From the IMG/VR virus record IMGVR_UViG_3300001580_000006, positions 96,001-160,000 of that record: a DNA stretch of 64,000 nucleotides, one strand, 5' to 3'. The DNA comes from a virus. Lineage: Duplodnaviria > Caudoviricetes. The first letter of the stretch is position 1. Each line of letters begins with the position of its first letter. This document shows positions 4,986 through 53,556 of the stretch, piece after piece. A program made the position numbers and the translations under genes. The notes below the pieces were generated by a model. It made no database searches. It was not told the origin of the DNA and saw nothing but the letters and a program-made list of their open reading frames with translations.

Positions 4986-7511
4986 TTACTTTAACTCTTC
5001 TTGAATGGCCCCTTCTATGGTAGAATCAGTGGGCATCTTTACTGACCAAGTGCGGTTGCCTATTACTAGTGCTGGTATGTCTCGTACATTGCGCATTAGC
5101 ATATCCGTAAGGATATCTGTAGCCTCGGCATGTTTGTCAATATCAAACTCATGATAATGATATTCATATTTGCCTGGCATTTTCTTTAGTAATGCCTGAA
5201 TACGGCCGTCCGTTGTTTTACATATAGAGCACCCCGGCTTTCCATATAGATGGATTGCTTTGTCGCGCCTTATATTTACATTTACTGGAGACCCAAGACT
5301 GCGGTCATTGTGCTGTTTGCGGTCTTCGCGCTCCTGCTGTTTACCTTTATTCCACTTGTCTGACTCACCATAATACCCAGTAACCCTGGTAATATAGGTA
5401 ACGTTCTCAGACGAGCACTTCTTGCAGGCGTCTAGTTCACCTTTCTCAACTGTACTACAATCATTACATCTAGTAAAGGTTGGGCTAAACACAACCTGAT
5501 CGTTCTGCGATAGATCATATATCTTAGTTATGAAGCTTGCCACTGCCTTAACGTCTGGAGTAGCGTCACCCATCCAAGCGTGTGTAATAGATCCAGCGTC
5601 TATAGCGCCATGGAACTGGCCCTCTAGTAATATCCTATCAACCAAACTGACATTAGCATCAACCGCAATATGCGTCGAGTTAGTATAGTAGACTGAGCCA
5701 GTTTTCACGTCACCCTTTACCAGCTTCTTAGCATCTGGATACTTCTCCAGGTCTAGCTTGGCAAACCTATACGCCGTTGATTCAGCTGGTGTTTGTTCTA
5801 AAGCAATATTCATCTTATGCTCTTTAGAGAGACGCTGACATGCTATATACATGTGAGACACTATCTTTAAGCCAAGTTCAAATGCTTGCTGATCTTCGTG
5901 TAGTTGTTTACCTGTAAGCTCCTGGACAGCTTCGTTTAGCCCAAGTACGCCAATAAGGTATCGTGCTGACCCTAGACCAAAATACGGTGCTCCGTCTTGA
6001 TCGTAGGTAAGTGTAGCTAGAGGACCATGTTCCTTTAGCGCCAATAGTTTATTTATGAATTTCTTTTTCTGAATGTGCGCGTCTACCGCTGTAGCAAAAT
6101 ACTTGTCCAAGCGTTCGGTAAATATCTTTTCCAGCTCTGGGAGGTCATATGACCCAGCTTGTTTGGCTTCTAGCGCAAACCTAGGAAGGTTAAGAGTAAT
6201 ATTCTGTAGGGCCGCAAATCTCATTCTCCACGGTTCGTGTTTGGCTGTCTCTACTTCGTCGTCAGACATGTTGACTCGTAATCTGCAACACTGTGACACG
6301 ACGTTTGTATCTCCTCGCTCAAACACCAAGTACAGGGATCCAGTTTTTGCAACTGCTTCAGATATTAGCTCTAGGTGACCTTCATGGTTATCAGTACGCC
6401 AGAAGTCTTTGGTAATATGGACATTAGCTTTTGGAAAGAAGAACGGCAAGCCATTGGCATCGCCATCTTTATATACCTCAATACACGCTCTTAGGAACCG
6501 CCTGCTTTCAGCAGTATAGTCTCCATATGTAAGAAATCCATCCTTCATGTTGTGCTTAAACATCTGAGCATTCTTTGGAAGATCGCGGACGAACTCTGTA
6601 TGCGACTCACCTAACTTATCTATCCATTTATGAATAAACCTACCACCTGGTCCTAAGGCAAATGTGTCCTTATAGCGAGGCGGTGTTTCATAATAGAAGT
6701 TTAGGTCGGAGAATATCGCTTGGCCTCCCCTAGTTCCAAGAAGCTGCGAGAATGAGAATATCATGTCTTGGGCTGATTGTTTAACAACCTCGTCAGAGAC
6801 GCCTTGTACAAATGGTGCCATGAATATGTTCACAGCATCCCAACCGATAGCCCCAGCAAAGTGACCTTGTAGTAACGAACTAAACTCTTTGATGTGGTTT
6901 ATAAGTACTAATAGGTGCTTGGCCGGCTTCGATGGATTGGGGTATGCTTTAGAAGATAGTCCATAGCGTATCACGTATGCCAGGTTCTGTCCTGAACAAT
7001 ATGGCCTGTCTACCAGCCCAAGATCATGCAGGTGCATATAGCCATCTTTGTGTGCAGTTGCAACTTCCTTACTGAATACCTCTCCAGAATCAAGAGCAAA
7101 CTGCTTCTTTATATTCTCGCCAATATATAAATTTATTGCCTCTGGGTTGTGCGGTACATTCGAGTTCTCTTGGTTGCCACCAGTAATCAAAGCTGATAGG
7201 TCACGGAATGACATAACGGCCAAGCTACCTTTTCTCCACTTTGCGCGCATGCCTCTTGACAAAAGCTCTGCCTGTGTAAGGGTTCTGATCTCTGCTGTAG
7301 TTACTGTTTCTAGCCCAGCATCCACGACTTTCTTTTCTACTGCAGTGGCAATAGAGTCAGCCACCTCTGGTTTTATACCAAGCTCATCAGTTAGCTTTTC
7401 TATAACCCGGGCTTTGTTCCACTCCTCGTGGGTAAAATTTGTAGTTGACCCCACCATTAAATTATTAGCGGTTGGATCATTGGTTGTCTGTCTAACTACC
7501 TTTGGGGACAT
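4986..7511 (-). CDS. nrdD: Anaerobic (class III) ribonucleoside-triphosphate reductase with N-terminal ATP cone and C-terminal glutaredoxin-like domain
   Basis: HLHDL, RPYCSG, SQCCRL, EQTPAES, YYTNSTH, CxxC..CxxC, glycyl-radical motif RVTGYY; tail YGKPGCSICK...IPALVI. Confidence 0.92.
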   Translation of the reverse strand: MSPKVVRQTTNDPTANNLMVGSTTNFTHEEWNKARVIEKLTDELGIKPEVADSIATAVEKKVVDAGLETVTTAEIRTLTQAELLSRGMRAKWRKGSLAVMSFRDLSALITGGNQENSNVPHNPEAINLYIGENIKKQFALDSGEVFSKEVATAHKDGYMHLHDLGLVDRPYCSGQNLAYVIRYGLSSKAYPNPSKPAKHLLVLINHIKEFSSLLQGHFAGAIGWDAVNIFMAPFVQGVSDEVVKQSAQDMIFSFSQLLGTRGGQAIFSDLNFYYETPPRYKDTFALGPGGRFIHKWIDKLGESHTEFVRDLPKNAQMFKHNMKDGFLTYGDYTAESRRFLRACIEVYKDGDANGLPFFFPKANVHITKDFWRTDNHEGHLELISEAVAKTGSLYLVFERGDTNVVSQCCRLRVNMSDDEVETAKHEPWRMRFAALQNITLNLPRFALEAKQAGSYDLPELEKIFTERLDKYFATAVDAHIQKKKFINKLLALKEHGPLATLTYDQDGAPYFGLGSARYLIGVLGLNEAVQELTGKQLHEDQQAFELGLKIVSHMYIACQRLSKEHKMNIALEQTPAESTAYRFAKLDLEKYPDAKKLVKGDVKTGSVYYTNSTHIAVDANVSLVDRILLEGQFHGAIDAGSITHAWMGDATPDVKAVASFITKIYDLSQNDQVVFSPTFTRCNDCSTVEKGELDACKKCSSENVTYITRVTGYYGESDKWNKGKQQEREDRKQHNDRSLGSPVNVNIRRDKAIHLYGKPGCSICKTTDGRIQALLKKMPGKYEYHYHEFDIDKHAEATDILTDMLMRNVRDIPALVIGNRTWSVKMPTDSTIEGAIQEELK

Positions 7512-7558
7512 TTAAATCTCCTTGTTGTCTATTGTTTGTGATTGGGTTTCCCTCCTCG

Positions 7559-7972
7559 TCAGTCGTCCCCTAGATAAACAAAGTACTTAGCAAATAAATC
7601 TAGCCCTTCTTTTTGCAGCTCTCCGCATTTTATCATATCACTTACAGTGTGTGTACAGTTTCTGCTGTTAGATAAGGTCTTACATAGGTTTGCTTCACAA
7701 AGGGTTATTTCAAACGCTAGAGATATCTTATCTATGATCTCTAGCCATTTCTTTGTGGCCAACTCGTCGTCCTTAACTTCATCAAAGATTGCACCTGGAA
7801 TACCAGCATACTTGTTTTGCCCGAGCCTTTTACGGCACTCTTTAAGCCTTGGCAGTACAAACTTTGCAACGGTAATGTCAAGACACCACAACTCATTGTC
7901 CGCAAACCCACGAGTCAGCCTTTGGAAAAACCAGCGGACCTCATATAAAGCCTCTACAATCCAATTAAACAT
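7559..7972 (-). CDS. hypothetical phage protein
   Basis: GAGG RBS; operon context. Confidence 0.6.
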   Translation of the reverse strand: MFNWIVEALYEVRWFFQRLTRGFADNELWCLDITVAKFVLPRLKECRKRLGQNKYAGIPGAIFDEVKDDELATKKWLEIIDKISLAFEITLCEANLCKTLSNSRNCTHTVSDMIKCGELQKEGLDLFAKYFVYLGDD

Positions 7973-30262: not shown

Positions 30263-30655
30263 TTATTCAATATCTCCATCTGATTCCTCCCTAGGGCTTT
30301 CTACGTTGTCTGGCGGTAGCTGTGTAATTAGCGATCTGACTATGTCCGTCATCTCAGCTAGTACAATCAGCTGTGTGCCAACTTTAACATACGCCTGGTT
30401 TTTATATTTACGAAACGTTCCGCCAAATGATATCTGTGCTCCGGCAGACATCTTTGGTATTATTGGATCATCTGCTCTGCCGTACCATTGGACGTTTAGT
30501 GTGAACTCCTCTGTTATAGCCTTACCTTTAGCGCCGGTGAACACCTCTGCGCTTAGTACCTTGAAATATAATGTGCCATAACCAGGGTTAGTTCTACTAG
30601 CATCCCACGCTGGATCGGTAGAGACTAGACCAACTACGGTTACAAAAATCATCAA
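30263..30655 (-). CDS. possible OB-fold single-stranded DNA-binding protein
   Basis: V.VVG.V..DP, V.WYG, G..I...G.F, acidic C-terminus; near the recombination genes. Confidence 0.45.
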   Translation of the reverse strand: MMIFVTVVGLVSTDPAWDASRTNPGYGTLYFKVLSAEVFTGAKGKAITEEFTLNVQWYGRADDPIIPKMSAGAQISFGGTFRKYKNQAYVKVGTQLIVLAEMTDIVRSLITQLPPDNVESPREESDGDIE

Positions 30656-32523
30656 CTACCTTTTGCTTTTGCTCTAGCAGTAGATATATTGTTAGAGCAT
30701 TGTTGTGCTATGGCAGATGCTTTGTCAAAGTCTATGCCAAATTTTTCCTTGAGAAATGTATTTACTGAATCAGTGGTGTCCTGTGGCCATTGATCCTCAA
30801 ATCCAAAGCCAACGAACTGGTGCTTGGGTTTTTCATCAGTAGTTTTATTACCAAAGCCTATTCCTTTGCTTTTGCTTCCAGCTGCTATAGATGCTAGCAC
30901 TATAGCTGAACTTAAGTATGCTGTACGCCCAAGAGTGTCAGTAACAAAGCCATTGGTAAGCATATTTCTTACTATATCTGCAACTGTGGAGTGCGCAGCA
31001 TCTAAATTGTCTAGAACAAGAATGGGGTTATTAAATGTATTCAACTGTGTAATAAGGGATCCGCCCTTGTCAGAAAGGATATAACCAGCTGGAGCGCCTA
31101 ACCACCTATTTACTGTAGATGAATCAATAAACTCCTGTAGATCATAGTAGATAACTGCGTTTCTTCCATACAGTGCAAAGCTTAACTCTTCAGCATATAC
31201 CGATAGTAGTCCTTTGTTTGGGGTGCTTATTAGCGCACTCGCCAGTGGTTTGCGATAAGATTTAGCTAGCCCTTGGGCTACAATGCTTTCTGTAGTCTTA
31301 GAGCAATTAGGAAGAAGGGTCGTTAAGTACGATAAGCTCGTTAATAGCTTGCTAGTGTCTTTGGTAACCATGGCGGCTAAAAACGGATTCTCATTACGGG
31401 ATAATACGTCAGCTACTATGCCATCATTGACTTGCGCCGTGTTCTTAAGTCTGGCTCTAGCCATCAGCGAGTCAATAAACGATAGGGCTGCATCTGGTTG
31501 ACTGTGGTTCGGGCTATAGAATGTGCTATATGTTACAAGATCAGAGACGTTGTCCATTGGTATACCAACCTGGTGGTAGCCTTCGTATACCGGTGCTACT
31601 TTAGTAACCAGTTTAATTACTTCATCAAAGGGCAGCTCACCTACGTTTATTCTCTGTACTCGGCGCTCTAGTGCACGATCAGGTTCTATGCTTCCAGCGA
31701 ATTCTTGTGGGGTAGTAGAGCCTATCAATCTGATATCACGCCTGGCTAAAGCAGGTTTCAATATGTTTGCGGCATCAGAAGTCTGCATAGACTTGGTGGC
31801 AAATAAGGAATGGATTTCGTCAGCGAATAATATTACCCAAGGTAAGCTAGCACACTCCATAATGATTTGCTGAAGAACCGCGGCTACTTGTGAGCTGTGA
31901 TCACTGCGAGCCATTATCTGAGACGGAGACAGCTCTAGTATAACTGATTGAGACAAAGGACCACGAATAGTGCCATCCACCATTCTTTGTGCCAGACCTT
32001 CAATAATGGCAGTTTTACCAACACCAGCAGGTCCTACTAGTACAGGATTTGCTTTGTTACGACGCATTAGGGTCTGAACGATGGCATCTATAATATCCTG
32101 TCTTCCATATACTGGGTCCAGCTCTCCATCAATAGCTTCTTTGGTTATATTCCTAGTTATCTTACCTAGTAGGAAGCCAGAGTCAGATATATAATGACAG
32201 CGCTGGGTAAGCAGATCTATATCAGCTTTAGGTTGCTCTACTACAATGTCATCAGATATAATGCCTAGCTTCCTACATATTCCTATAAGGTCATCTATGT
32301 CTGTATAATGTTTTTGACTTGTATTGGCTAAGTCTTTTAGAACGCAGTCTAAGACTTTGTCGGCCTTAATGTTATCCATCAACGGTACTGCTGAAAATTT
32401 ATCCGGTGCTAATTCATATATCGCAGTTATGATGGCTACACGTTCTGGCGTATTGGCCAAAATCAGCTCGTTTATGCGGCGTAGCGCTGAGACAAGTCTA
32501 AACGAATACAGAGCAGATTTCAT
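30652..32523 (-). CDS. ClpA/ClpB-like AAA+ ATPase with degenerate second AAA module
   Basis: [56 protein letters not shown]. Confidence 0.88.
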
Positions 32524-39328: not shown

Positions 39329-39362
39329 AAAGTCGGAGTAGATATTAATCCGCTCCGACTTC
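39329..39362 (-). terminator. hairpin terminator after the Ubl gene
   Basis: AAAGTCGGAG...CTCCGACTTT inverted repeat immediately downstream of the stop codon. Confidence 0.55.
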
Positions 39363-39367
39363 TACGC

Positions 39368-39589
39368 TTAGTTGGATTTCTGACGAACCTCGGCGATTAG
39401 GATGGTTCCGCCATTGATGGCCAGGGTCTGAGTTGGGCTCTCCACCAGGACAGAGTTCTGCCTAATCTCAGAGTTCGCACTGATCTCCAAGTGGGCGGTG
39501 TCGATGGCGTCCTGGACGGTGGCGTTATCTTCTAAAGCCACTGGGTTCAGAATGCCAGGCATCTTCCCAATGTTGCAGGTAATGGGCAT
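39368..39589 (-). CDS. ubiquitin-like (beta-grasp) protein
   Basis: 73 aa: strand, GKMPG turn, strand, ATVQDAI helix, IRQN, terminal strand. Last gene of the E2-JAB-E1 operon; AGGAG RBS. Confidence 0.7.
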   Translation of the reverse strand: MPITCNIGKMPGILNPVALEDNATVQDAIDTAHLEISANSEIRQNSVLVESPTQTLAINGGTILIAEVRQKSN

Positions 39590-39662
39590 CTTTGATACTC
39601 CTTGTTAATGGTTGATTGTTAACTAATCCCAATCGGGATATTATAGCATATAGGGGTGACAA

Positions 39663-40346
39663 TTATTTCCAGTTATCGGTTGCTACATAGAATGGGCGCA
39701 TGCTAACTAGAGTGTGATTAGGGTATGGCCAACCACGGTGATTACATACTAATATGTGTGAAAGCATACCAGATGCTACCTTAAGCGTTGAGCTGATAGC
39801 TCTATTTCTGCAGTCGCCCATTTCATCATCTGGTTTGTCTTCAAACAGCGTGGCCTCCCACTTCTTAATTGAGTCTTGGTCACAAGGGTTAAATGCATAT
39901 AGTCTAAAGACTTCCGATGATAGCCTAGACTCAACAAACAATTTAATGTTTGGGTTGTTCTTAATACTCGATTCCCATAACTTGCGTCTGCTGTCCCAGG
40001 TATCTACAAACAGCATTACTATACCAGATAAGCCGTTTATTTTAATTAGCTTACCTTTCGACTGAATGGGCATGAAATCCATTTCTGATATTTCAGATAC
40101 AATCTCTTTCATAGCCTGCACCTTTGGCCGGCCCCAGTCTGACTTGCGGAACACCTGGTTCGGTATATTGTGGTCCTCTATGGTATCAAAGTCATAGCCT
40201 ATACAATGCTTAACTCCCATTCTTGCAAGGGTTTCTATGACGTTGGATCCTGTAGCACCTACTCCAATAACGTGAACAGGCTCTTTCATTTCTTCTGGGT
40301 TGAATACGTCTAACTGTCTCCAGTAATCTACTTTCATTATTGCCAC
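39663..40346 (-). CDS. ThiF/E1-like ubiquitin-activating enzyme
   Basis: RQ.D, IGVGATGS, YDFDTIE.HNI.NQ, G.PKV, VD....R, Cys in MGDCR. Confidence 0.88.
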   Translation of the reverse strand: MAIMKVDYWRQLDVFNPEEMKEPVHVIGVGATGSNVIETLARMGVKHCIGYDFDTIEDHNIPNQVFRKSDWGRPKVQAMKEIVSEISEMDFMPIQSKGKLIKINGLSGIVMLFVDTWDSRRKLWESSIKNNPNIKLFVESRLSSEVFRLYAFNPCDQDSIKKWEATLFEDKPDDEMGDCRNRAISSTLKVASGMLSHILVCNHRGWPYPNHTLVSMRPFYVATDNWK

Positions 40347-41083
40347 CTTTCCATCCAGTATTTATCTACTTCTGCATACTCTTCAGCTTCTGTCCTCTCG
40401 TCTTCAAAGCGTTCGTGTATTGAGCGATCTATAAAGGGTGTGCTTATTTTAATTGGAATTCTTTTGTCCTTGATGCTATCTTTTATTACTTTGTCGATCT
40501 CGTCTTCGATGCCGTCTTCCATAGGAACGGCAATATACCAAGGAACATCGTCCCATCTCCAACCTTGCTCAAAGTTCATAATGTCTACCCGAGCTGCAAT
40601 ATTGGCGTTGAATATAATTCTGATATACCACGGCTGTGCAGAGGTCTGCAGTTTTTCTGGGTCACCGTGTAGTCTAAACTGATCTTCATCTGGTCCAGAT
40701 GGTGACACTTGGTCATCGTCTCCCCACGGGTGTAGGTGGCCCCAAGCTTTTAGCCTATTTACATCTGTCGGATTACGCTCAGCAGTTTTAAAATAGGCAT
40801 CATACATACCATCAAACGTCATTTCCGTTTCGGCTCCATGGCACTCTTGCTCTGGTATAATAATACCATCGATAAGGTATTCAGACGGTGATACCTTAGT
40901 AACAGTATGGTACCAAGATACTTCCAGCCCCTTTGGCATTCTACGAATAAGCGTAGCTATTCTATTATACACCTCTGGTGTAAACTTAACTACTGGAGGT
41001 TTATCTTTGTTGATTATAGAATATTGCGTTTTGTAGGGACCTCTTCCCTTAACCAATAACGCCTGCTTCGATGGTTCCGGCAT
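40337..41083 (-). CDS. JAB/MPN+ metallopeptidase
   Basis: EVSW, IP.QE, WGHLHP......PS..D (E, HxH, SxxD). Confidence 0.8.
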   Translation of the reverse strand: MPEPSKQALLVKGRGPYKTQYSIINKDKPPVVKFTPEVYNRIATLIRRMPKGLEVSWYHTVTKVSPSEYLIDGIIIPEQECHGAETEMTFDGMYDAYFKTAERNPTDVNRLKAWGHLHPWGDDDQVSPSGPDEDQFRLHGDPEKLQTSAQPWYIRIIFNANIAARVDIMNFEQGWRWDDVPWYIAVPMEDGIEDEIDKVIKDSIKDKRIPIKISTPFIDRSIHERFEDERTEAEEYAEVDKYWMERWQ

Positions 41084-42866
41084 TTTGATCTTCCTCTTCT
41101 ATTGTAATAACGTTTGCTAGATCTTCGGTTTGATATCTGAGTGACAGTATCTCGTTCTTCTCTTCGTTGGTCAGTCGCTTCTTTCGGCTGTTTGGACTAA
41201 GCGGCCAGTCTACCACATGCATACCTAGGCCATCATTTATGTTTACCGAAGTTGCGTGTCCGATTATTCCATTGATTATGGTAACTACGTCTCCCTGCTT
41301 CATAGCTTTATTCATCCAGTCTTCAGCGTTACCCCAACATACGCTCTGGTTTGTAAAAGCATGAGGTACTGAAGACCCGTTTGGTCTACGATCCATGTTC
41401 CAGAATTTGATATCATGTACTGAGCCCTTAATTGGTATATCTACCAGTAGGCGTCCTACGTCAAATACTAGTCCACCAGGTATCATAATCTCTACGTTGC
41501 GAGTGTTCAGGATCAAATGATTGCCAACTAAGTGCAGTGCTTTGACATAGACACTGGTAAGAGCAGCCGCTACGCTGTTCTTAGCGCGCTCTATAATCTT
41601 ATCCTTGTTGCGCTTCTCTATCCTGTTTATCATTAGCTCAAGTTCTGTTCTAGCTATACGCTCTTCACACCTCTTTAACTCTGCCTGCAGGCTAGCCTGG
41701 GTTTTGAAGTCACGGGCCAAGGACTCTTCCAGTTTACCGATGTTGTCCTCAGTTATCTTCGACGCCATCTCTATAGTCTCTGGCGGAATTATGGTAACTG
41801 GATAAACTATCTCATCGGCTATCTTTTTGAACCATGCATCTGGGACCAAATCCTTCGTCAGCTCAGCCGAACTTGCTAAGAACTCTAAGGCAATAACCTT
41901 ACTCTTATATGAATATAATAGAAACGATAGTGCGTACGCTAGCTGTTTGACTACATTAGCTATTTGATCCTTGTGTTGTGATACTAGTAAGTAATTAAAC
42001 ATCAATAGCTTAGCGCTTATGTATGCTCCGTCTTTCTTTACTGCGGTATAAATACCTAAACAGGTTCCATCAGGAGCAACTATGTTTTCTATGTCATACG
42101 CTTTGCTATCAGCGAACAGCGATCTATCATCTGACTTAATAAAGTCCGGGATATAGTAGCCAACATGGTTAAACCTATTTTGAGGTGCGGTATACTTTAT
42201 ATCTAGGCAATCAACTGTCTCAACTTCAGTATCTTTAGTGTATGCGGAATCTATATATCCACTATACAGTACAAACGTTCCATTGTCTTGAAACTGCAAC
42301 TGTGGGTTCATAGAAACCCTTTGTTTATTACGCGTGTCGGCTGGCTGTGAATCTACAACAACAGATGCAAGCCCCATAGTCTTACAGAAGTTTGTTATCA
42401 TATTCAATACTGGTCTTACGCTATCGTCTTTTAAGAACTGATCGGCGTGTCGACTGTTTGGCCGTATAGCTATGCCGTCTATGTCTAGTGCAACAGCTCT
42501 AGTAGCTGTAGTACCGGCGTCATACGTTATTGATTCAACTTCTAAAACATTTACGTCAGCCCCGCCATATAGAACGTGCACCTCTAGATTAACACTCATG
42601 TAGTTATCATGTAGGAAGTCAGCAGTAAGCGCTGGCTGCCCAGCTGCTATTGGTAGCAGCGACAACATATTAATAATGGTATCAGTGTCGGAATGGATTA
42701 CGGGCACAACACTGCCGTCGCCTAGGGCAAAATCTGTTGCCCTATTGGTTCTCAGAAATGTGTTGACTCTTTCAATATCTCTCTTAGTGTGAAAGAATGC
42801 AGGCAGTCTTATCTTTACCGTTGGTTTATCTGCATACTCTGTAAGAAAGTCTAGGAGGGTGAACAT
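41049..42866 (-). CDS. large protein with coiled coil and C-terminal prokaryotic E2-like domain
   Basis: G...V.IP...PHAFTNQSVCWGN (the PH..x..C.G pattern of E2); directly upstream of the JAB and E1 genes. Confidence 0.65.
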   Translation of the reverse strand: MFTLLDFLTEYADKPTVKIRLPAFFHTKRDIERVNTFLRTNRATDFALGDGSVVPVIHSDTDTIINMLSLLPIAAGQPALTADFLHDNYMSVNLEVHVLYGGADVNVLEVESITYDAGTTATRAVALDIDGIAIRPNSRHADQFLKDDSVRPVLNMITNFCKTMGLASVVVDSQPADTRNKQRVSMNPQLQFQDNGTFVLYSGYIDSAYTKDTEVETVDCLDIKYTAPQNRFNHVGYYIPDFIKSDDRSLFADSKAYDIENIVAPDGTCLGIYTAVKKDGAYISAKLLMFNYLLVSQHKDQIANVVKQLAYALSFLLYSYKSKVIALEFLASSAELTKDLVPDAWFKKIADEIVYPVTIIPPETIEMASKITEDNIGKLEESLARDFKTQASLQAELKRCEERIARTELELMINRIEKRNKDKIIERAKNSVAAALTSVYVKALHLVGNHLILNTRNVEIMIPGGLVFDVGRLLVDIPIKGSVHDIKFWNMDRRPNGSSVPHAFTNQSVCWGNAEDWMNKAMKQGDVVTIINGIIGHATSVNINDGLGMHVVDWPLSPNSRKKRLTNEEKNEILSLRYQTEDLANVITIEEEDQNAGTIEAGVIG

Positions 42867-42885: not shown

Positions 42886-43521
42886 TTATGTGGTAAGAAA
42901 TCTCTTATCGTCGGGAGTAATGTCACACTCTCCAAGAAACAAGGAGAGCGGCCTAAGTGATTCTGGTAGAGAGTTGAACAGCATCTCATCTCCAAACATC
43001 CGCACCAATGCTATGTTAGAGAGCATAGCTATTCTACCTTCGAATCCACTTAGGGCTAAGTCAATAAGCCCAGACTCGTTTATAGTTAATTCTATTTCCT
43101 GATCCTTCATTATTTCCCAGTCCGGTGCAACGCCCTCAGTCTGATCTGAACTAAACGCACACGATAGTATTTCTAATAGACTAGTAACACTGTCTGAGGT
43201 TGTATATCCTTCAGTATCATATAGCATCTCAGTTGTGGTAAACCACTCATACTTCTCGTCTTTGAGGTCGTCAGCTTTATCTGGTAATTGAGCAGTAAGT
43301 AAGCCAATTAGGTGTTTTAGTTTGTCTTCGTCTAGGTATAAATCTGTGGTTATCTCAGAACTGGCACACTGTTTGCACTTCTTCTCTTCCATAGAATCTT
43401 CTAAGGTAGGAAGACTAATTAGTGGCACTGGTTTAGTAATATTGATCTTTTTCCAGCAGTTTTTGCACAAGGCAATGAACTGGAATGACACTGTCTCTGC
43501 CCAAATACTAAGCTGTGACAT
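42886..43521 (-). CDS. hypothetical protein with N-terminal CxxC..CxxC
   Basis: CKNC, CKQC. Confidence 0.55.
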   Translation of the reverse strand: MSQLSIWAETVSFQFIALCKNCWKKINITKPVPLISLPTLEDSMEEKKCKQCASSEITTDLYLDEDKLKHLIGLLTAQLPDKADDLKDEKYEWFTTTEMLYDTEGYTTSDSVTSLLEILSCAFSSDQTEGVAPDWEIMKDQEIELTINESGLIDLALSGFEGRIAMLSNIALVRMFGDEMLFNSLPESLRPLSLFLGECDITPDDKRFLTT

Positions 43522-45504: not shown

Positions 45505-46950
45505 CTATTGCCTACAATCTGAGCTTTCGTATGCTCGTATGTAATCCATTACATGCTCTGACCACCCGTCAATGTGCGTCCACTTGCCATACCCAATCCC
45601 GTTCTTTTCAATAGAGACGTTGATTAGATAGTTTTCGGTAGCCCAAGAGGTGTCAGCGTTGGTTGGATCTCCTTTAGAGCCCTTGGCATCACAATCCTGT
45701 TCGTCAGTGAACACTATAACTCTATCAGCGCTACCTTCCTCTCTTTTGACGTAGTCCATAGCCTGTTTCAGGAATATTCCGCCACCGCCTAGGCTCTGCT
45801 CTGCCTTCTTTACTGCATCTATTAGAGCAAAGCCATAACGCGGAGCAACTAAAGCAGTTTGATGCACCCTAGTGTGGTCGTTGCCGGCAGTACAGTAGAT
45901 CCGTGCATCCACACACCGTTCTCTAGCAATAACAGCTAAAGCAGCAGCAACATCTAGACGATTACGGTCGGATTTGGCTGATATATTGCCGCGCATAGAG
46001 CCGGAAACATCTATGATTAAAACTGTTTTGCCTGGAAGCTTGGAGTATCCATCCAAGTATTTCAACATTGCTTGCTCAATCTTGTTTTCCCACTGCGGGG
46101 CAAACTGAGCAGCTGATATGAACTGGAATGGTAGCACCATGCCGGGCTTCAGCCTATCTAAGGCTTCGAACACTAGCTTCTCGTTAACTCCGTTGTCTTT
46201 GAAGTTACGCAGATTGCGTAGTACAGCCAAAGCTCCCATCTTATTGTTGGATAAAAGACGCTCAAACTCTAGGCGCTTAGCTTCCTTGTCGTTGCCACAG
46301 GCTGATATGGCTACTTCCCAGGTGTCTGGGGTAGCTAAGGTGTTGGCGCGTAGCCTTCCCCAAAGAGTAGCCTGGTCCTCATCAATAGGACGAGGGTGCA
46401 CTAAGCATAGAACATCGCGTAGCTTTATTACCTTGTCATCGCCGCGGTATTTAGCCAACTGATACTCGTCGAAGCGGCGGAACGCACTAGCTAAACCAAC
46501 CTTGAACTGCCAAGGAATCGGCACCCTCTTGCCATATCTGTGATCAGCAGTACGCTTAGGCTTAGCTTGTCTATTTATACCCCAATATATGGCTAATATT
46601 TCTGAGAGCTCGTCTGCTCTTTTAATAATCTCCGGAAGCAGTTGCCCAACCAGCTTCTTATGCTCTGGGTGTCTTAGCATTAGGTTGGCTATAAGCAGCG
46701 GTGCATGACGGATTTTCATATCCAGTCTGGTCTCAATAGCCATATTGAATACGCTATGAGGATCTACTTGGCCTATTAGCTCAGCTATACGCTCGGCTAT
46801 AGACATACCACCCTCATAGAATGAATCTTCCCAAAGCATGCACGCCATTAGTGACCGCCTCAGTTTCTTTTCAGCTGAAATCATGGCGGCATTTGCGCCA
46901 CCAGCTGTATAAACTGGAGGTCTTTTGGCAGTTGTGTTTATTCTCGCCAT
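45505..46950 (-). CDS. Ro60/Rsr TROVE-vWA RNA-binding protein (start at MARINTT, RBS AAGGGAG)
   Basis: LRR...CMLWED.FYE.G, R.APL, RADE, FDEYQLAKY, LRDVL...HP.P, PDTWE, ALAVLRNLRN, vWA DVSGSM and TDEQ. Confidence 0.92.
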   Translation of the reverse strand: MARINTTAKRPPVYTAGGANAAMISAEKKLRRSLMACMLWEDSFYEGGMSIAERIAELIGQVDPHSVFNMAIETRLDMKIRHAPLLIANLMLRHPEHKKLVGQLLPEIIKRADELSEILAIYWGINRQAKPKRTADHRYGKRVPIPWQFKVGLASAFRRFDEYQLAKYRGDDKVIKLRDVLCLVHPRPIDEDQATLWGRLRANTLATPDTWEVAISACGNDKEAKRLEFERLLSNNKMGALAVLRNLRNFKDNGVNEKLVFEALDRLKPGMVLPFQFISAAQFAPQWENKIEQAMLKYLDGYSKLPGKTVLIIDVSGSMRGNISAKSDRNRLDVAAALAVIARERCVDARIYCTAGNDHTRVHQTALVAPRYGFALIDAVKKAEQSLGGGGIFLKQAMDYVKREEGSADRVIVFTDEQDCDAKGSKGDPTNADTSWATENYLINVSIEKNGIGYGKWTHIDGWSEHVMDYIRAYESSDCRQ

Positions 46951-46968
46951 AGTCTTACTCCCTTTTTG

Positions 46969-47468
46969 ACTAGGTAATTTGATTGGCCCCGCCGTACACG
47001 GCTTTACGTGCGACAACAAAAGGCTTAGTATACTATACCTATTGCTGGTTTTGATCAAACTAACCGCGGGTTATTGTTCGGCTTGCCAGATTCTCACTGG
47101 ACGCTCGTCCTTACGGACATTCAATATAGTGTTGCTGCCCCACTATTATCGGCTGTGGGTCACCATCATACAAAGTGCCATTTTGCGACTAAGCACCATG
47201 GCTGGTTGCGCATACAGTCTTTCAGCGCTACGTCATTTGGCGGACATACCAAGCCTAGCCGGTTTTCGGTGGACTGCAATCTTACCTTCCATGGTCTTTG
47301 GTCAACCTCTACCACGCGCAGCGACTTTCAGGTGCTAGGCATCTGTATGGAAGACTGCGTAGACAAACCGGCAAAATTTAACGCTACTCGGCATAGTCGA
47401 ATCGGGCAGTACTGCGGTTTCCCGCGTGCTCTGATTAAGGGCGAAGTAACCCAACTCTTCACCTGAGT
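46969..47468 (-). ncRNA. putative ~500-nt structured RNA starting with a Y-RNA-type 5' motif
   Basis: 5' CAGGUGAAGAGUUGGGUUACUUCG; no credible ORF on the transcribed strand; many local hairpins; abuts the Ro60 RBS. Confidence 0.55.
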
Positions 47469-51396: not shown

Positions 51397-51472
51397 TGGT
51401 TGCGGGGGCAGGAATCGAACCTGCGACCGTATGGGTTATGAGCCCAACAAGCTACCTCTGCTACACCCCGCG
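51397..51472 (-). tRNA. tRNA-fMet (CAT)
   Basis: C1:A72 mismatch, GGG-CTCATAA-CCC anticodon arm, TTCGA T-loop, encoded CCA. Confidence 0.9.
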
Positions 51473-53480: not shown

Positions 53481-53556
53481 TGGTCGGAGACCCCGGGCTC
53501 GAACCGGGGGCTTCATGCTCCCAAAGCATGCACGCTACCAACTGCGTTAGTCTCCG
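53481..53556 (-). tRNA. tRNA-Pro (TGG)
   Basis: Canonical 76-nt cloverleaf, CATGC-TTTGGGA-GCATG, encoded CCA. Confidence 0.93.

Follow-up and report, generated by a model that had tools for sequence, protein, structure and literature searches.

The window, a 64,000-nucleotide stretch of DNA, belongs to an IMG/VR record of a phage that is 223 kb long and 94% complete. In the replication arm of this record, with DnaB, polymerase, primase and ligase genes around, lie four minus-strand genes that overlap or are closely spaced. They encode an E2-like protein (41049..42866, 605 aa), a JAB peptidase (40337..41083, 248 aa), an E1 enzyme (39663..40346, 227 aa from a GTG start codon or 224 aa from an ATG at 40337) and a ubiquitin-like protein, Ubl (39368..39589, 73 aa). 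All four open reading frames are found as the original prediction had described them from the sequence, consecutive and co-oriented, and its statement that a phage carries the complete cascade holds for this record, in which the cassette sits amid phage replication genes. The E2 gene runs 35 nt into the JAB gene, whose start codon is preceded by the ribosome-binding site GAGGAAG. The alternative ATG of the E1 gene overlaps the JAB stop codon as TAATG; this start, giving 224 aa, is more likely than the GTG. A candidate fifth gene (42886..43521, minus strand) ends 19 nt upstream of the E2 gene and encodes a protein of 211 aa that contains a zinc-ribbon-like CxxC...CxxC motif. A Pfam scan gave no match for this protein. 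The two closest relatives, L005 and L006, encode weakly similar proteins directly ahead of their E2 genes (phmmer 1.8e-4), and C19, C22 and C52 are kept in the alignment with them. That the 211-aa protein belongs to the cassette is inferred from its position only, and its role is unknown.

The E2-like, JAB and E1 genes occur together in 17 of 17 independent loci, and the Ubl gene is also present in 15 of them. These are the loci that could be inspected, where the contig reaches far enough. They come from four MAG contigs and from viral (IMG/VR) and metagenome contigs; for eight relatives the source is an IMG/VR viral contig, 15-175 kb in length. The synteny survey that had been called for thus finds the gene set recurring, and the four-gene arrangement is far beyond chance. 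The E2, JAB and Ubl of the cassette go unrecognised by the models of Pfam, NCBIfam, PADLOC and PHROG, and no paper on the cassette was found in the literature; the family is uncatalogued.

The 605-aa protein had been predicted to end in an E2-like domain with a PH..C-W-G-N motif, and P501-H502-x7-C510-W-G-N is indeed present. The C-terminal domain adopts a UBC fold in the structure model, and the absence of such a fold, which would have refuted the prediction, is thus not what is seen. The UBC-like core (residues about 437-557; nt 41196-41558, minus strand) has the features of that fold: an N-terminal helix, an antiparallel beta-meander, an active-site loop and C-terminal helices. It includes His502 (41361-41363, minus strand) and the candidate catalytic Cys510 (41337-41339, minus strand). 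The P, H and C of the motif and G512 are invariant in the domain sequences of 80 relatives (Cys510 in 80/80). The E2-like proteins of the cassette family are 600-760 aa long. The family motif, (A/H)-P-H-(V/I)-x3-G-x2-C-(L/W)-G-N, matches E2 active sites in its H-to-C spacing and its G-x-x-C-L context, and meets the criterion of an HPN-type motif with a catalytic Cys about 8-10 residues on. Among E2 enzymes, the family profile matches only UBE2W, in its active-site segment (E about 1). The Pfam models UQ_con and Prok-E2_A to E do not match the E2-like protein of the window at E up to 1, nor any of 44 E2-like relatives at E up to 0.01. The core is preceded by a long helix (residues 362-436; nt 41559-41783, minus strand) and by residues 1 to about 355, the fold of which is unknown: this region gives a poor structure model and matched nothing. 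As a proposal, the long helix and the N-terminal region of about 355 residues would dimerise the protein or dock it on targets.

The JAB peptidase, a metallopeptidase of the JAMM/MPN+ type, carries E54 and H116-x-H118-x10-S129-x-x-D132, the E, HxH and SxxD that had been noticed before, and the E, HxH, S and D are invariant in 18/18 cassette JABs. The spacer from HxH to S has 10 residues in the window's copy versus the canonical 7 in several relatives. Alone, the window's JAB has no Pfam match; one relative matches Prok-JAB at 2.6e-4, and the family profile matches solved JAMM enzymes in the PDB, namely BRCC36 (3e-5), RPN11 (5e-5) and CSN5 (1e-4), and also AMSH and JAMM1.

The E1 enzyme matches Pfam ThiF (PF00899) with 58 bits against a cut-off of 28.1, as a single domain at residues 24-195. 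It is also matched over its full length by phrog_15670 (8e-18), PADLOC E1-E2 models match it at up to 6e-12, and the family profile matches the active adenylation domain of Uba1, ThiF, PaaA, MccB, UBA5 and MoeB. R10, GxGxxG, D52, K75 and D115 are conserved in 17/17 cassette E1s, N60, N63 and R120 in 16-17/17, and Q64 in 16/17. Cys179 (codon 39810-39812) is conserved in all 16 full-length cassette E1s. With the GxGxxG loop and Cys179 in place, the description of a ThiF/E1 enzyme with a candidate catalytic Cys stands. The profile alignments to PDB entries stop near residue 127, so the position of Cys179 relative to a crossover loop or CYS domain is unmapped. The relatives' E1s have 221-278 aa, and the window's enzyme is a minimal single domain, with neither an inserted CYS domain nor a UFD. 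How such an E1 would hand over a thioester to an E2 is unclear, which is a point against conjugation. Co-folding of E1 with Ubl gave a score of 0.56 (best control 0.00), with runs agreeing in at least 94% of contacts and partner pLDDT at least 87. Of 80 solved complexes, 58 get as far as this mark, as do 2 of 110 mismatched pairs; scores no higher than 0.60 come from only 7/80 solved complexes and from both mismatches that pass. The modelling thus lends only weak support to a putative E1-Ubl interaction, and the pass may reflect likeness only, because E1-Ubl complexes have already been solved.

A phage could use these proteins for counter-defence and not for tagging of its own: the JAB would strip host conjugates of the Bil or CBASS type, and the Ubl, E1 and E2 would serve as decoys or competitors for the Ubl immune pathways of the host. 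The cassette is phage-borne and lies in the early replication arm, host Ubl systems such as Bil and type II CBASS are antiviral (PMC10557695, PMC10097602), and JAB-E1 pairs without an E2-like domain or GN-type Ubl occur in phages as well, in the second operon of this phage and in FpV4-like Flavobacterium phages. However, E1, E2 and JAB strictly conserve all their catalytic residues even between distant relatives, as expected of an active cascade and not of decoys, and nothing links the cassette to hosts carrying Bil or CBASS, so that we consider counter-defence rather improbable. It describes a role more than a mechanism and is compatible with conjugation.

The Ubl gene had been credited with an extended -10 element, a strong ribosome-binding site and a terminator of its own. 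The elements are there: the 73-nt spacer between the E1 and Ubl genes contains the extended -10-like element TGCTATAAT (39648..39640, minus strand, read from the sequence) and AAGGAG (39603..39598, minus strand), 8 nt ahead of the Ubl ATG at 39589, and directly after the Ubl stop lies a terminator-like hairpin of 14 bp (39331..39362, minus strand; MFE -18.8 kcal/mol, z -5.2, with 0/200 shuffles folding as well). However, TGCTATAAT has no -35 element and the U-tract after the hairpin, UUUGAAAAC, is weak. Since the consensus scanner listed neither element, the internal promoter, a candidate only, and the terminator remain plausible but unproven.

A 73-aa protein without a beta-grasp fold would also have refuted the prediction, and this outcome is likewise not seen. 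The AF2 model of the Ubl (pLDDT 87.5, pTM 0.71) resembles MoaD by Foldseek (4e-4, TM 0.73), with MoaD, SAMP1, ubiquitin, SUMO and the Bil Ubl 8tyx_A as the top matches; these and NEDD8 are matched with probability 1.00 and TM 0.6-0.74. The closest sequence relatives are SAMP2, ThiS, MoaD and RnfH; the family profile matches SAMP2 at 9e-4, with the G-N of the family aligned over the G-G of SAMP2.

The end of the tag is unusual. To our knowledge, every characterised conjugated Ubl ends in Gly-Gly or Gly. The window's Ubl ends in ...VRQKSN (Asn73 codon 39371-39373), having neither Gly-Gly nor a single Gly at its C-terminus, and so fails this criterion for a reactive end; the Asn end had not been remarked on earlier. 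The terminal Asn is the sole invariant residue among 19 Ubl domains, of which 18 end in G-N, usually K-G-N, and the window's copy in S-N. In 9 of 15 distinct Ubl genes the stop codon directly follows the Asn. Relatives also encode head-to-tail di-Ubls, with every unit ending in KGN, or tails beyond KGN. These di-Ubls and tails are polyubiquitin-like and fit a processing protease; tandem di-Ubl precursors are typical of conjugated tags. The mature C-terminus is inferred to be the Asn, or the preceding residue if the Asn is a cleaved cap like Ala98 in Ensifer BilA.

The same proteins could form a sulfur-carrier pathway, in which the E1 adenylates the Ubl, which becomes a thiocarboxylate and passes its sulfur on to a metabolite, a tRNA or a DNA base. 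The carrier would be trimmed by the JAB, as happens in CysO/Mec+ or QbsC/D/E, and the 605-aa Cys protein would be a sulfurtransferase and no E2. The E1 has the size and architecture of MoeB/ThiF, enzymes that at such a size usually serve sulfur transfer, and the relatives of the Ubl named above are in keeping with such a pathway. Trios of E1, JAB and Ubl are known from sulfur pathways (Iyer et al., 2006, PMC1779556). However, every locus links the cassette to a UBC-fold protein that has an E2-type active-site motif, known sulfur carriers all end in Gly-Gly and not in an invariant Asn, and tandem di-Ubl precursors again point to conjugated tags. The original prediction had noted that no sulfur-cofactor genes are nearby, and this extends to the whole 223-kb record, in which ThiG, MoaE, rhodanese and cysteine desulfurase (Aminotran_5) gave no matches while the same searches match 11-14 of 14 control genomes, although enzymes of the host cannot be excluded. 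A sulfur-carrier function is therefore quite unlikely.

Could the Asn itself be the reactive end? MccB and PaaA belong to the E1 family, and their substrates are peptides with Asn or Glu-Glu-Asn at the C-terminus. With chemistry of the MccB type, the E1 would adenylate the C-terminal Asn, its side-chain amide would cyclise to a succinimide, and this activated ring would either undergo attack, by a lysine or by the Cys of the E2, or become an N-P linked protein-nucleotide adduct in place of a tag carried as a thioester. Such a route would give meaning to the sole invariant residue, which occupies the terminal-Gly position of SAMP2, and to the genes that stop right after it, and MccB (4e-11) and PaaA (2e-11) are among the better PDB matches of the E1 profile. 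However, ThiF and Uba1 outscore MccB, and the N-terminal domain that serves MccB as a peptide clamp is missing from the E1, whose sequence starts directly with the Rossmann fold. Moreover, the substrate is a folded 73-aa protein, whereas that of MccB is a heptapeptide, and the Asn may just as well be a residue that the JAB cuts off, for P1' recognition or as a cap, like Ala98 of Ensifer BilA (PMC10557695). We thus regard MccB-type chemistry as very unlikely for this cassette. The broader idea of a chemically new tag, in which the minimal E1 activates the invariant C-terminal Asn as the reactive end and transfer could take a succinimide route with alpha- or beta-linked products in place of the universal glycine acyl-adenylate/thioester route, is also unlikely, if a little less so; if true, Asn-succinimide tagging would be a virus-owned system mechanistically unlike every known Ubl pathway.

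The reading that we favour, and think probable, is that the cassette is a phage-encoded ubiquitin-like protein-conjugation module of an uncatalogued family. It starts from what is observed, namely the folds or families of the four proteins, the conservation of catalytic residues and the synteny; adenylation, thioesters, isopeptide formation, the mature C-terminus and all statements on targets are inferred, with no biochemical data on the cassette. An outline of the process would be as follows: initially, the minimal E1, which presumably dimerises with itself as MoeB/ThiF do, binds the 73-aa tag and adenylates its C-terminal carboxylate with ATP. The E1 may hold the tag on the loop Cys179, and the tag would then pass as a thioester to Cys510 of the UBC-like C-terminal domain of the 605-aa protein, and from there to lysines of unknown phage or host proteins in the early or middle phase of infection. 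The JAB would remove conjugates and trim tag precursors, trimming being needed in those relatives that encode tandem di-Ubls or tails after KGN. The earlier proposal of host or competitor proteins being tagged, with the N-terminal region of the E2-like protein selecting them, is untested; no E3 and no target is identifiable for the cassette. The tag without a Gly or Gly-Gly end, the poorly modelled N-terminal 355 residues and the lack of biochemistry also count against conjugation.

We know of no prokaryotic Ubl conjugation that has been characterised other than as a host anti-phage weapon (Bil, type II CBASS and probably Bub). Here it is large phages that own an E1-E2-JAB-Ubl cassette, complete and strictly conserved. 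This turns the picture round, and suggests that bacterial viruses use covalent tagging to remodel proteins, much as ubiquitin is exploited by eukaryotic viruses. E2 sequence space is also broadened by the family because no current HMM sees the domain, and the invariant terminal Asn of the tag implies either a new processing rule, the cap residue being fixed, or a new chemistry of activation. As the 73-aa tag and the 227-aa E1 are small proteins that look soluble, the cassette is directly testable in E. coli.

Among known systems, Bil (BilABCD, types I and II) comprises bacterial ISG15-like anti-phage ubiquitination operons (PMC10557695). The cassette resembles it in that four separate genes of one operon encode the Ubl, the E1, the JAB/JAMM peptidase and an E2 that has the UBC fold and a catalytic Cys, and possibly in that the E2 dimerises. 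In Ensifer BilA, Ala98 is a one-residue cap after the reactive Gly that is removed (PMC10557695), and the JAB of the cassette is for this reason expected to pre-process the Ubl. However, Bil lies in host defence islands whereas the cassette is phage-encoded, and a host-encoded anti-phage defence is not supported, with no PADLOC match for E2, JAB or Ubl. Its 227-aa E1 is a single adenylation domain whereas BilD has IAD, AAD and CYS domains (PMC10557695), its E2 is a C-terminal domain behind a long helix that Prok-E2/UQ_con models do not recognise, and its Ubl ends in the invariant Asn, relatives often having tandem di-Ubls. Type II CBASS Cap2/Cap3 (PMC10097602) resembles the cassette in its compact E1 adenylation domain, E2-type Cys chemistry and JAB-family peptidase, but Cap2, in which E2 and E1 are fused, conjugates the C-terminus of the CD-NTase without a dedicated Ubl (PMC10097602). 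In the cassette, E2 and E1 are separate with the JAB gene between them, there is a dedicated beta-grasp tag, and no CD-NTase turned up when 15 neighbouring ORFs were scanned against Pfam. Archaeal SAMP2/UbaA/HvJAMM1 and the sulfur carriers ThiS/MoaD share the minimal MoeB-like E1 and an associated JAMM peptidase, SAMP2 being the closest solved sequence relative of the Ubl; these systems are E2-less with Gly-Gly tags, whereas the cassette always has the UBC-like protein and a tag ending in (G/S)-Asn. Bub (PMC11601596) is likewise a prokaryotic E1/E2/Ubl pathway that has diverged, in which precursors are processed and the Ubls have several beta-grasp units, and BubCD is among the matches of the E1 profile (1.6e-8). 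Bub, however, uses serine (oxyester) intermediates, a peptidase-E1 fusion without a catalytic Cys and a serine protease (PMC11601596), whereas the cassette has invariant cysteines in both E1 and E2 and a JAB metalloprotease.

The original prediction described four consecutive co-oriented genes, and these exist as stated on the minus strand, encoding an E2-like protein of 605 aa (41049-42866), a JAB/MPN+ peptidase of 248 aa (40337-41083), an E1 of 227 aa (39663-40346) and a ubiquitin-like protein (Ubl) of 73 aa (39368-39589); the four-gene cassette is confirmed. The E2-like and JAB genes overlap by 35 nt, the ATG of the JAB gene is preceded by the ribosome-binding site GAGGAAG, and an ATG of the E1 gene overlaps the JAB stop codon as TAATG. 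The Ubl gene had also been credited with a promoter, a ribosome-binding site and a terminator of its own. The 73-nt spacer before it does hold TGCTATAAT (39648..39640) and AAGGAG, and a 14-bp hairpin (-18.8 kcal/mol, z -5.2) lies 3′ of its stop codon, but the U-tract is weak and a generic scanner listed neither promoter nor hairpin, so these two elements are candidates only.

The source record is an IMG/VR virus of 223,464 bp, 94% complete by CheckV, of which bases 96001-160000 are considered here. Large ORFs in this region match phage families: DnaB helicase, NrdD, DNA polymerase, helicase, exonuclease, SbcD, primase, a two-domain AAA+ protein and RNA ligase. In the neighbourhood of the cassette are genes for an ATP-dependent DNA ligase, a MazG protein, RecA and a TROVE/Ro60-like protein. 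Because of these replication-type genes, the cassette is placed in the arm of a jumbo phage that serves replication and nucleic-acid metabolism. The TROVE/Ro60-like gene, which has a vWA domain, lies 2.6 kb upstream in the same orientation (45505-47058, minus strand); since no Ro60 homologue was found beside the cassette in any other locus inspected, it was rejected as a member and is not treated as part of the system. ARAGORN finds tRNA-Met (CAT) and tRNA-Pro (TGG) genes at 51397-51472 and 53481-53556, both on the minus strand. The two-domain AAA+ protein (623 aa, 30652-32523, minus strand; AAA, AAA_lid_9 and AAA_2, PHROG 'ATP-dependent protease') resembles a ClpB-like gene directly after the E1 gene in one comparison locus, L007 (phmmer 4e-38). 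This likeness hints, weakly, at a possible link between tagging and an unfoldase, AAA+ similarity being generic.

How widespread is this cassette? Its relatives emerged only by exhaustive HMMER search. Word-index protein searches found no relative of the E2-like protein and matched the JAB and Ubl only to themselves, a blastn query with the cassette had no match in 50,697 phage records, and back-translation scans of IMG/VR with single proteins gave none for the E2-like protein and JAB and two short contigs only for the E1. HMMs of the four families were run over every locus fetched from contigs encoding relatives, IMG/VR and GTDB genomes, the IMG/VR and GTDB loci having been located with the narrower family alignment A7, as A3 and A4 were too diverse. 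All 17 independent loci with sufficient contig extent have JAB and E1 genes together with the E2-like gene, and 15 of them encode a Ubl; this count excludes the window, takes the identical copies L003/L004 and L011/L013 once each, and leaves out L021, which lies at a contig end. The family HMM scan detected no Ubl in L003/L004, and the L005 and L018 contigs stop before the expected Ubl position. On L003 and L004, two IMG/VR contigs 4.6 and 4.9 kb long, the E2-like domain lies within a 534-aa protein rich in CxxC zinc-ribbon repeats, followed by a 73-aa probable membrane protein, JAB and E1. Directly upstream of the E2-like gene, the window encodes a zinc-ribbon-like protein (211 aa, 42886..43521, minus strand), and so do its two closest relatives. 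Four MAG matches, assigned to Patescibacteria, Thermoplasmatales, Chitinophagales and Ectothiorhodospiraceae, have the same cassette and may be binned phage contigs. No cultured phage carrying the exact cassette family was found, and tblastn of the E2 domain (window protein and one relative) against INPHARED phages gave no match.

The E2-like protein was unrecognised by any profile library searched, and no Pfam family is assigned to the domain in 44 relatives. Exhaustive HMMER search with it retrieved 90 proteins at E <= 1e-3, two of which align over most of its length (32% and 29% identity) and the rest over residues 370-570 only. Within this domain G471, P501, H502, C510, G512 and D545 are kept in 80/80 trimmed sequences, the consensus being APHVFxxGxACLGN...SVNxxDxxGxxIxxWP; the putative active-site motif is strongly conserved, and its segment reads like an E2 active site. 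The sole E2 touched by the profile is UBE2W (HPHVYSNGHICL), at an E-value of about 1. The best PDB matches of the profile were designed ankyrin repeats (DARPin), rejected as a short repeated VNxxDxxG likeness without any domain-level stretch. AlphaFold2 models residues 360-580 at pLDDT > 90 as one 75-residue helix, a beta-meander, a P-H...C loop and three helices, and the top 50 Foldseek matches are nearly all E2s, at weak E-values (0.03-0.2). When the whole 605-aa model was searched by structure, coiled coils that matched the long helix (358-440) swamped the result, and only two E2 rows surfaced. A UBC fold of the C-terminal domain is moderately well supported. Residues 1-360 have low pLDDT, and the N-terminal region gave no usable atlas feature match and a structural TM of no more than 0.28; the fold of the N-terminal 355 residues is unresolved and should not be equated with a new fold.

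In eleven distinct loci a further E2-like paralogue occurs that lacks the P-H...C motif (L007, at 6983-7852, L010-L012, L014-L017, L019 and L020, with three E2-like genes in L018). These extra copies often retain the C-terminal D-x-x-G...(W/F)P motif and may be read as a UEV-like inactive variant or partner. The window cassette lacks this paralogue, and the whole phage genome has only one E2-like domain.

The E1 is readily recognised: it matches Pfam ThiF with 58 bits (cut-off 28.1), phrog_15670 across its full length, and the Cap2-type E1-E2 models of PADLOC over the nucleotide-binding part. The arginine finger R10, the GxGxxG loop, D52, N60, N63, K75, D115 and R120 are invariant among 17 cassette E1s, and Cys179 is present in 16/16 full-length ones. 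It is a single domain without IAD, CYS insertion, UFD or zinc motif. Because the family profile matches the Uba1 active adenylation domain, ThiF, UBA6, PaaA, MccB, UBA5, MoeB, BubCD and Cap2 alike, sequence comparison places the cassette E1 in the E1 superfamily without assigning it to one branch. The window JAB alone has no match in the profile libraries searched, Pfam included. A profile of eight cassette JAB homologues matches BRCC36 (3e-5), RPN11, CSN5, AMSH and archaeal JAMM1, and E54, H116, H118, S129 and D132 are kept in 18/18 cassette JABs. The spacer from HxH to S has a three-residue insertion in the window JAB and is the canonical x7 in several relatives.

The window Ubl is an orphan by sequence search, and a five-member family profile matches SAMP2 (9e-4), Pyrococcus PF1061, RnfH, MoaD and ThiS. 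From an alignment of 19 domains AlphaFold2 predicts a beta-grasp with confidence (pLDDT 87.5), and the Foldseek neighbours of this model are MoaD, SAMP1, ubiquitin, SUMO, NEDD8 and the Bil Ubl 8tyx_A (probability 1.00, TM 0.6-0.74); the 73-aa protein is, as had been proposed, a beta-grasp Ubl. The final Asn is the sole invariant column among the 19 domains, and the residue before it is Gly in 18 and Ser in the window copy; the family G-N aligns over the G-G of SAMP2. In nine loci, viral contigs and MAGs, one gene encodes two head-to-tail beta-grasp units, each ending KGN. The stop codon comes exactly after Asn in 9/15 distinct Ubl genes, and some others have tails of A, I, IR or 14-21 residues beyond it. 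From these sequences, the family resembles a system of polyubiquitin-style precursors that have ...(G/S)-N as their fixed end. The mature end could be Asn, or the preceding residue with Asn as a cap, and we cannot tell these alternatives apart. In Ensifer BilA the cap residue is Ala98, removed by its JAB (PMC10557695). A third small ORF of the phage (84 aa, G000:C1:192430-192684 in whole-record coordinates, minus strand) weakly matches the cassette Ubl HMM (E = 6e-4).

What chemistry could such proteins perform? A role of the Ubl as a sulfur carrier is disfavoured because its end is Asn, a UBC-like partner is always present in the cassette, and searches of the phage for ThiG, MoaE, rhodanese and cysteine desulfurase gave no match. 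Asn-dependent chemistry of the MccB kind cannot be ruled out. The reading with the best support is an active cascade of Ubl conjugation, in which E1 would adenylate the Ubl, Cys510 of the E2 would carry it as a thioester for transfer to lysines, and JAB would process the precursors and deconjugate the products; function and targets remain to be shown. A co-fold of E1 with Ubl scored 0.56 against 0.00 for controls, subject to the calibration caveats of the method, and this predicted pairing is only weakly supported, as the pass may also come from E1-Ubl complexes having been solved already. The interpretation of a phage-carried E1-E2-JAB-Ubl cascade is upheld at the computational level only. 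Whether the cassette serves counter-defence is a question of biology, not of mechanism, and such a role is compatible with conjugation.

A second Ubl-type operon lies in the same phage, 453 nt past the window end (G000:C1:160453-165727, minus strand; partly covered by locus L002). It encodes a 364-aa protein, a canonical JAB (HSH-x7-SGED), a 224-aa E1 27% identical to the cassette E1, a 184-aa protein, five tandem paralogues of 132-146 aa and a 73-aa Ubl ending SGGR, and it has no E2-like domain. Therefore, one phage has two systems, a GG-type one that lacks an E2 and an Asn-type one that contains it. Among cultured phages, those of Flavobacterium psychrophilum named FpV1-4 and the FPSV series (88-92 kb) have an E1 with 30% identity, annotated 'thiamine biosynthesis protein ThiF'. 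Beside it in Flavobacterium phage FpV4 (NC_041872.1, 58923-69513; locus L022) are a JAB (HIHSH...SGTD), an unknown 420-aa protein and a 289-aa protein whose Ubl-like N-terminus ends ...KSGG before a long tail; the E2 HMM has no match in this locus. These phages share only the E1/JAB type with the cassette, and might serve as a model in culture for Ubl systems of phages.

The literature searches turned up no account of an E1-E2-JAB-Ubl cassette encoded by a phage, nor of a Gly-Asn tag, and the jumbo-phage survey by Aravind and colleagues touches on ubiquitin in passing only. The cassette represents both a new family and a new variant among ubiquitin-like conjugation systems, virus-encoded and with an unusual Asn-terminated tag, its function and targets not being shown. 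SAMP-type systems, unlike it, are E2-less. It is not Cap2/Cap3, because it has neither a fusion nor a CD-NTase, and it is not Bub, because its cysteines are retained and its protease is a JAB. It resembles Bil in encoding Ubl, E2, JAB and E1 separately and in the proposed pre-processing by the JAB, but fails membership on E1 architecture, tag end and genomic owner.
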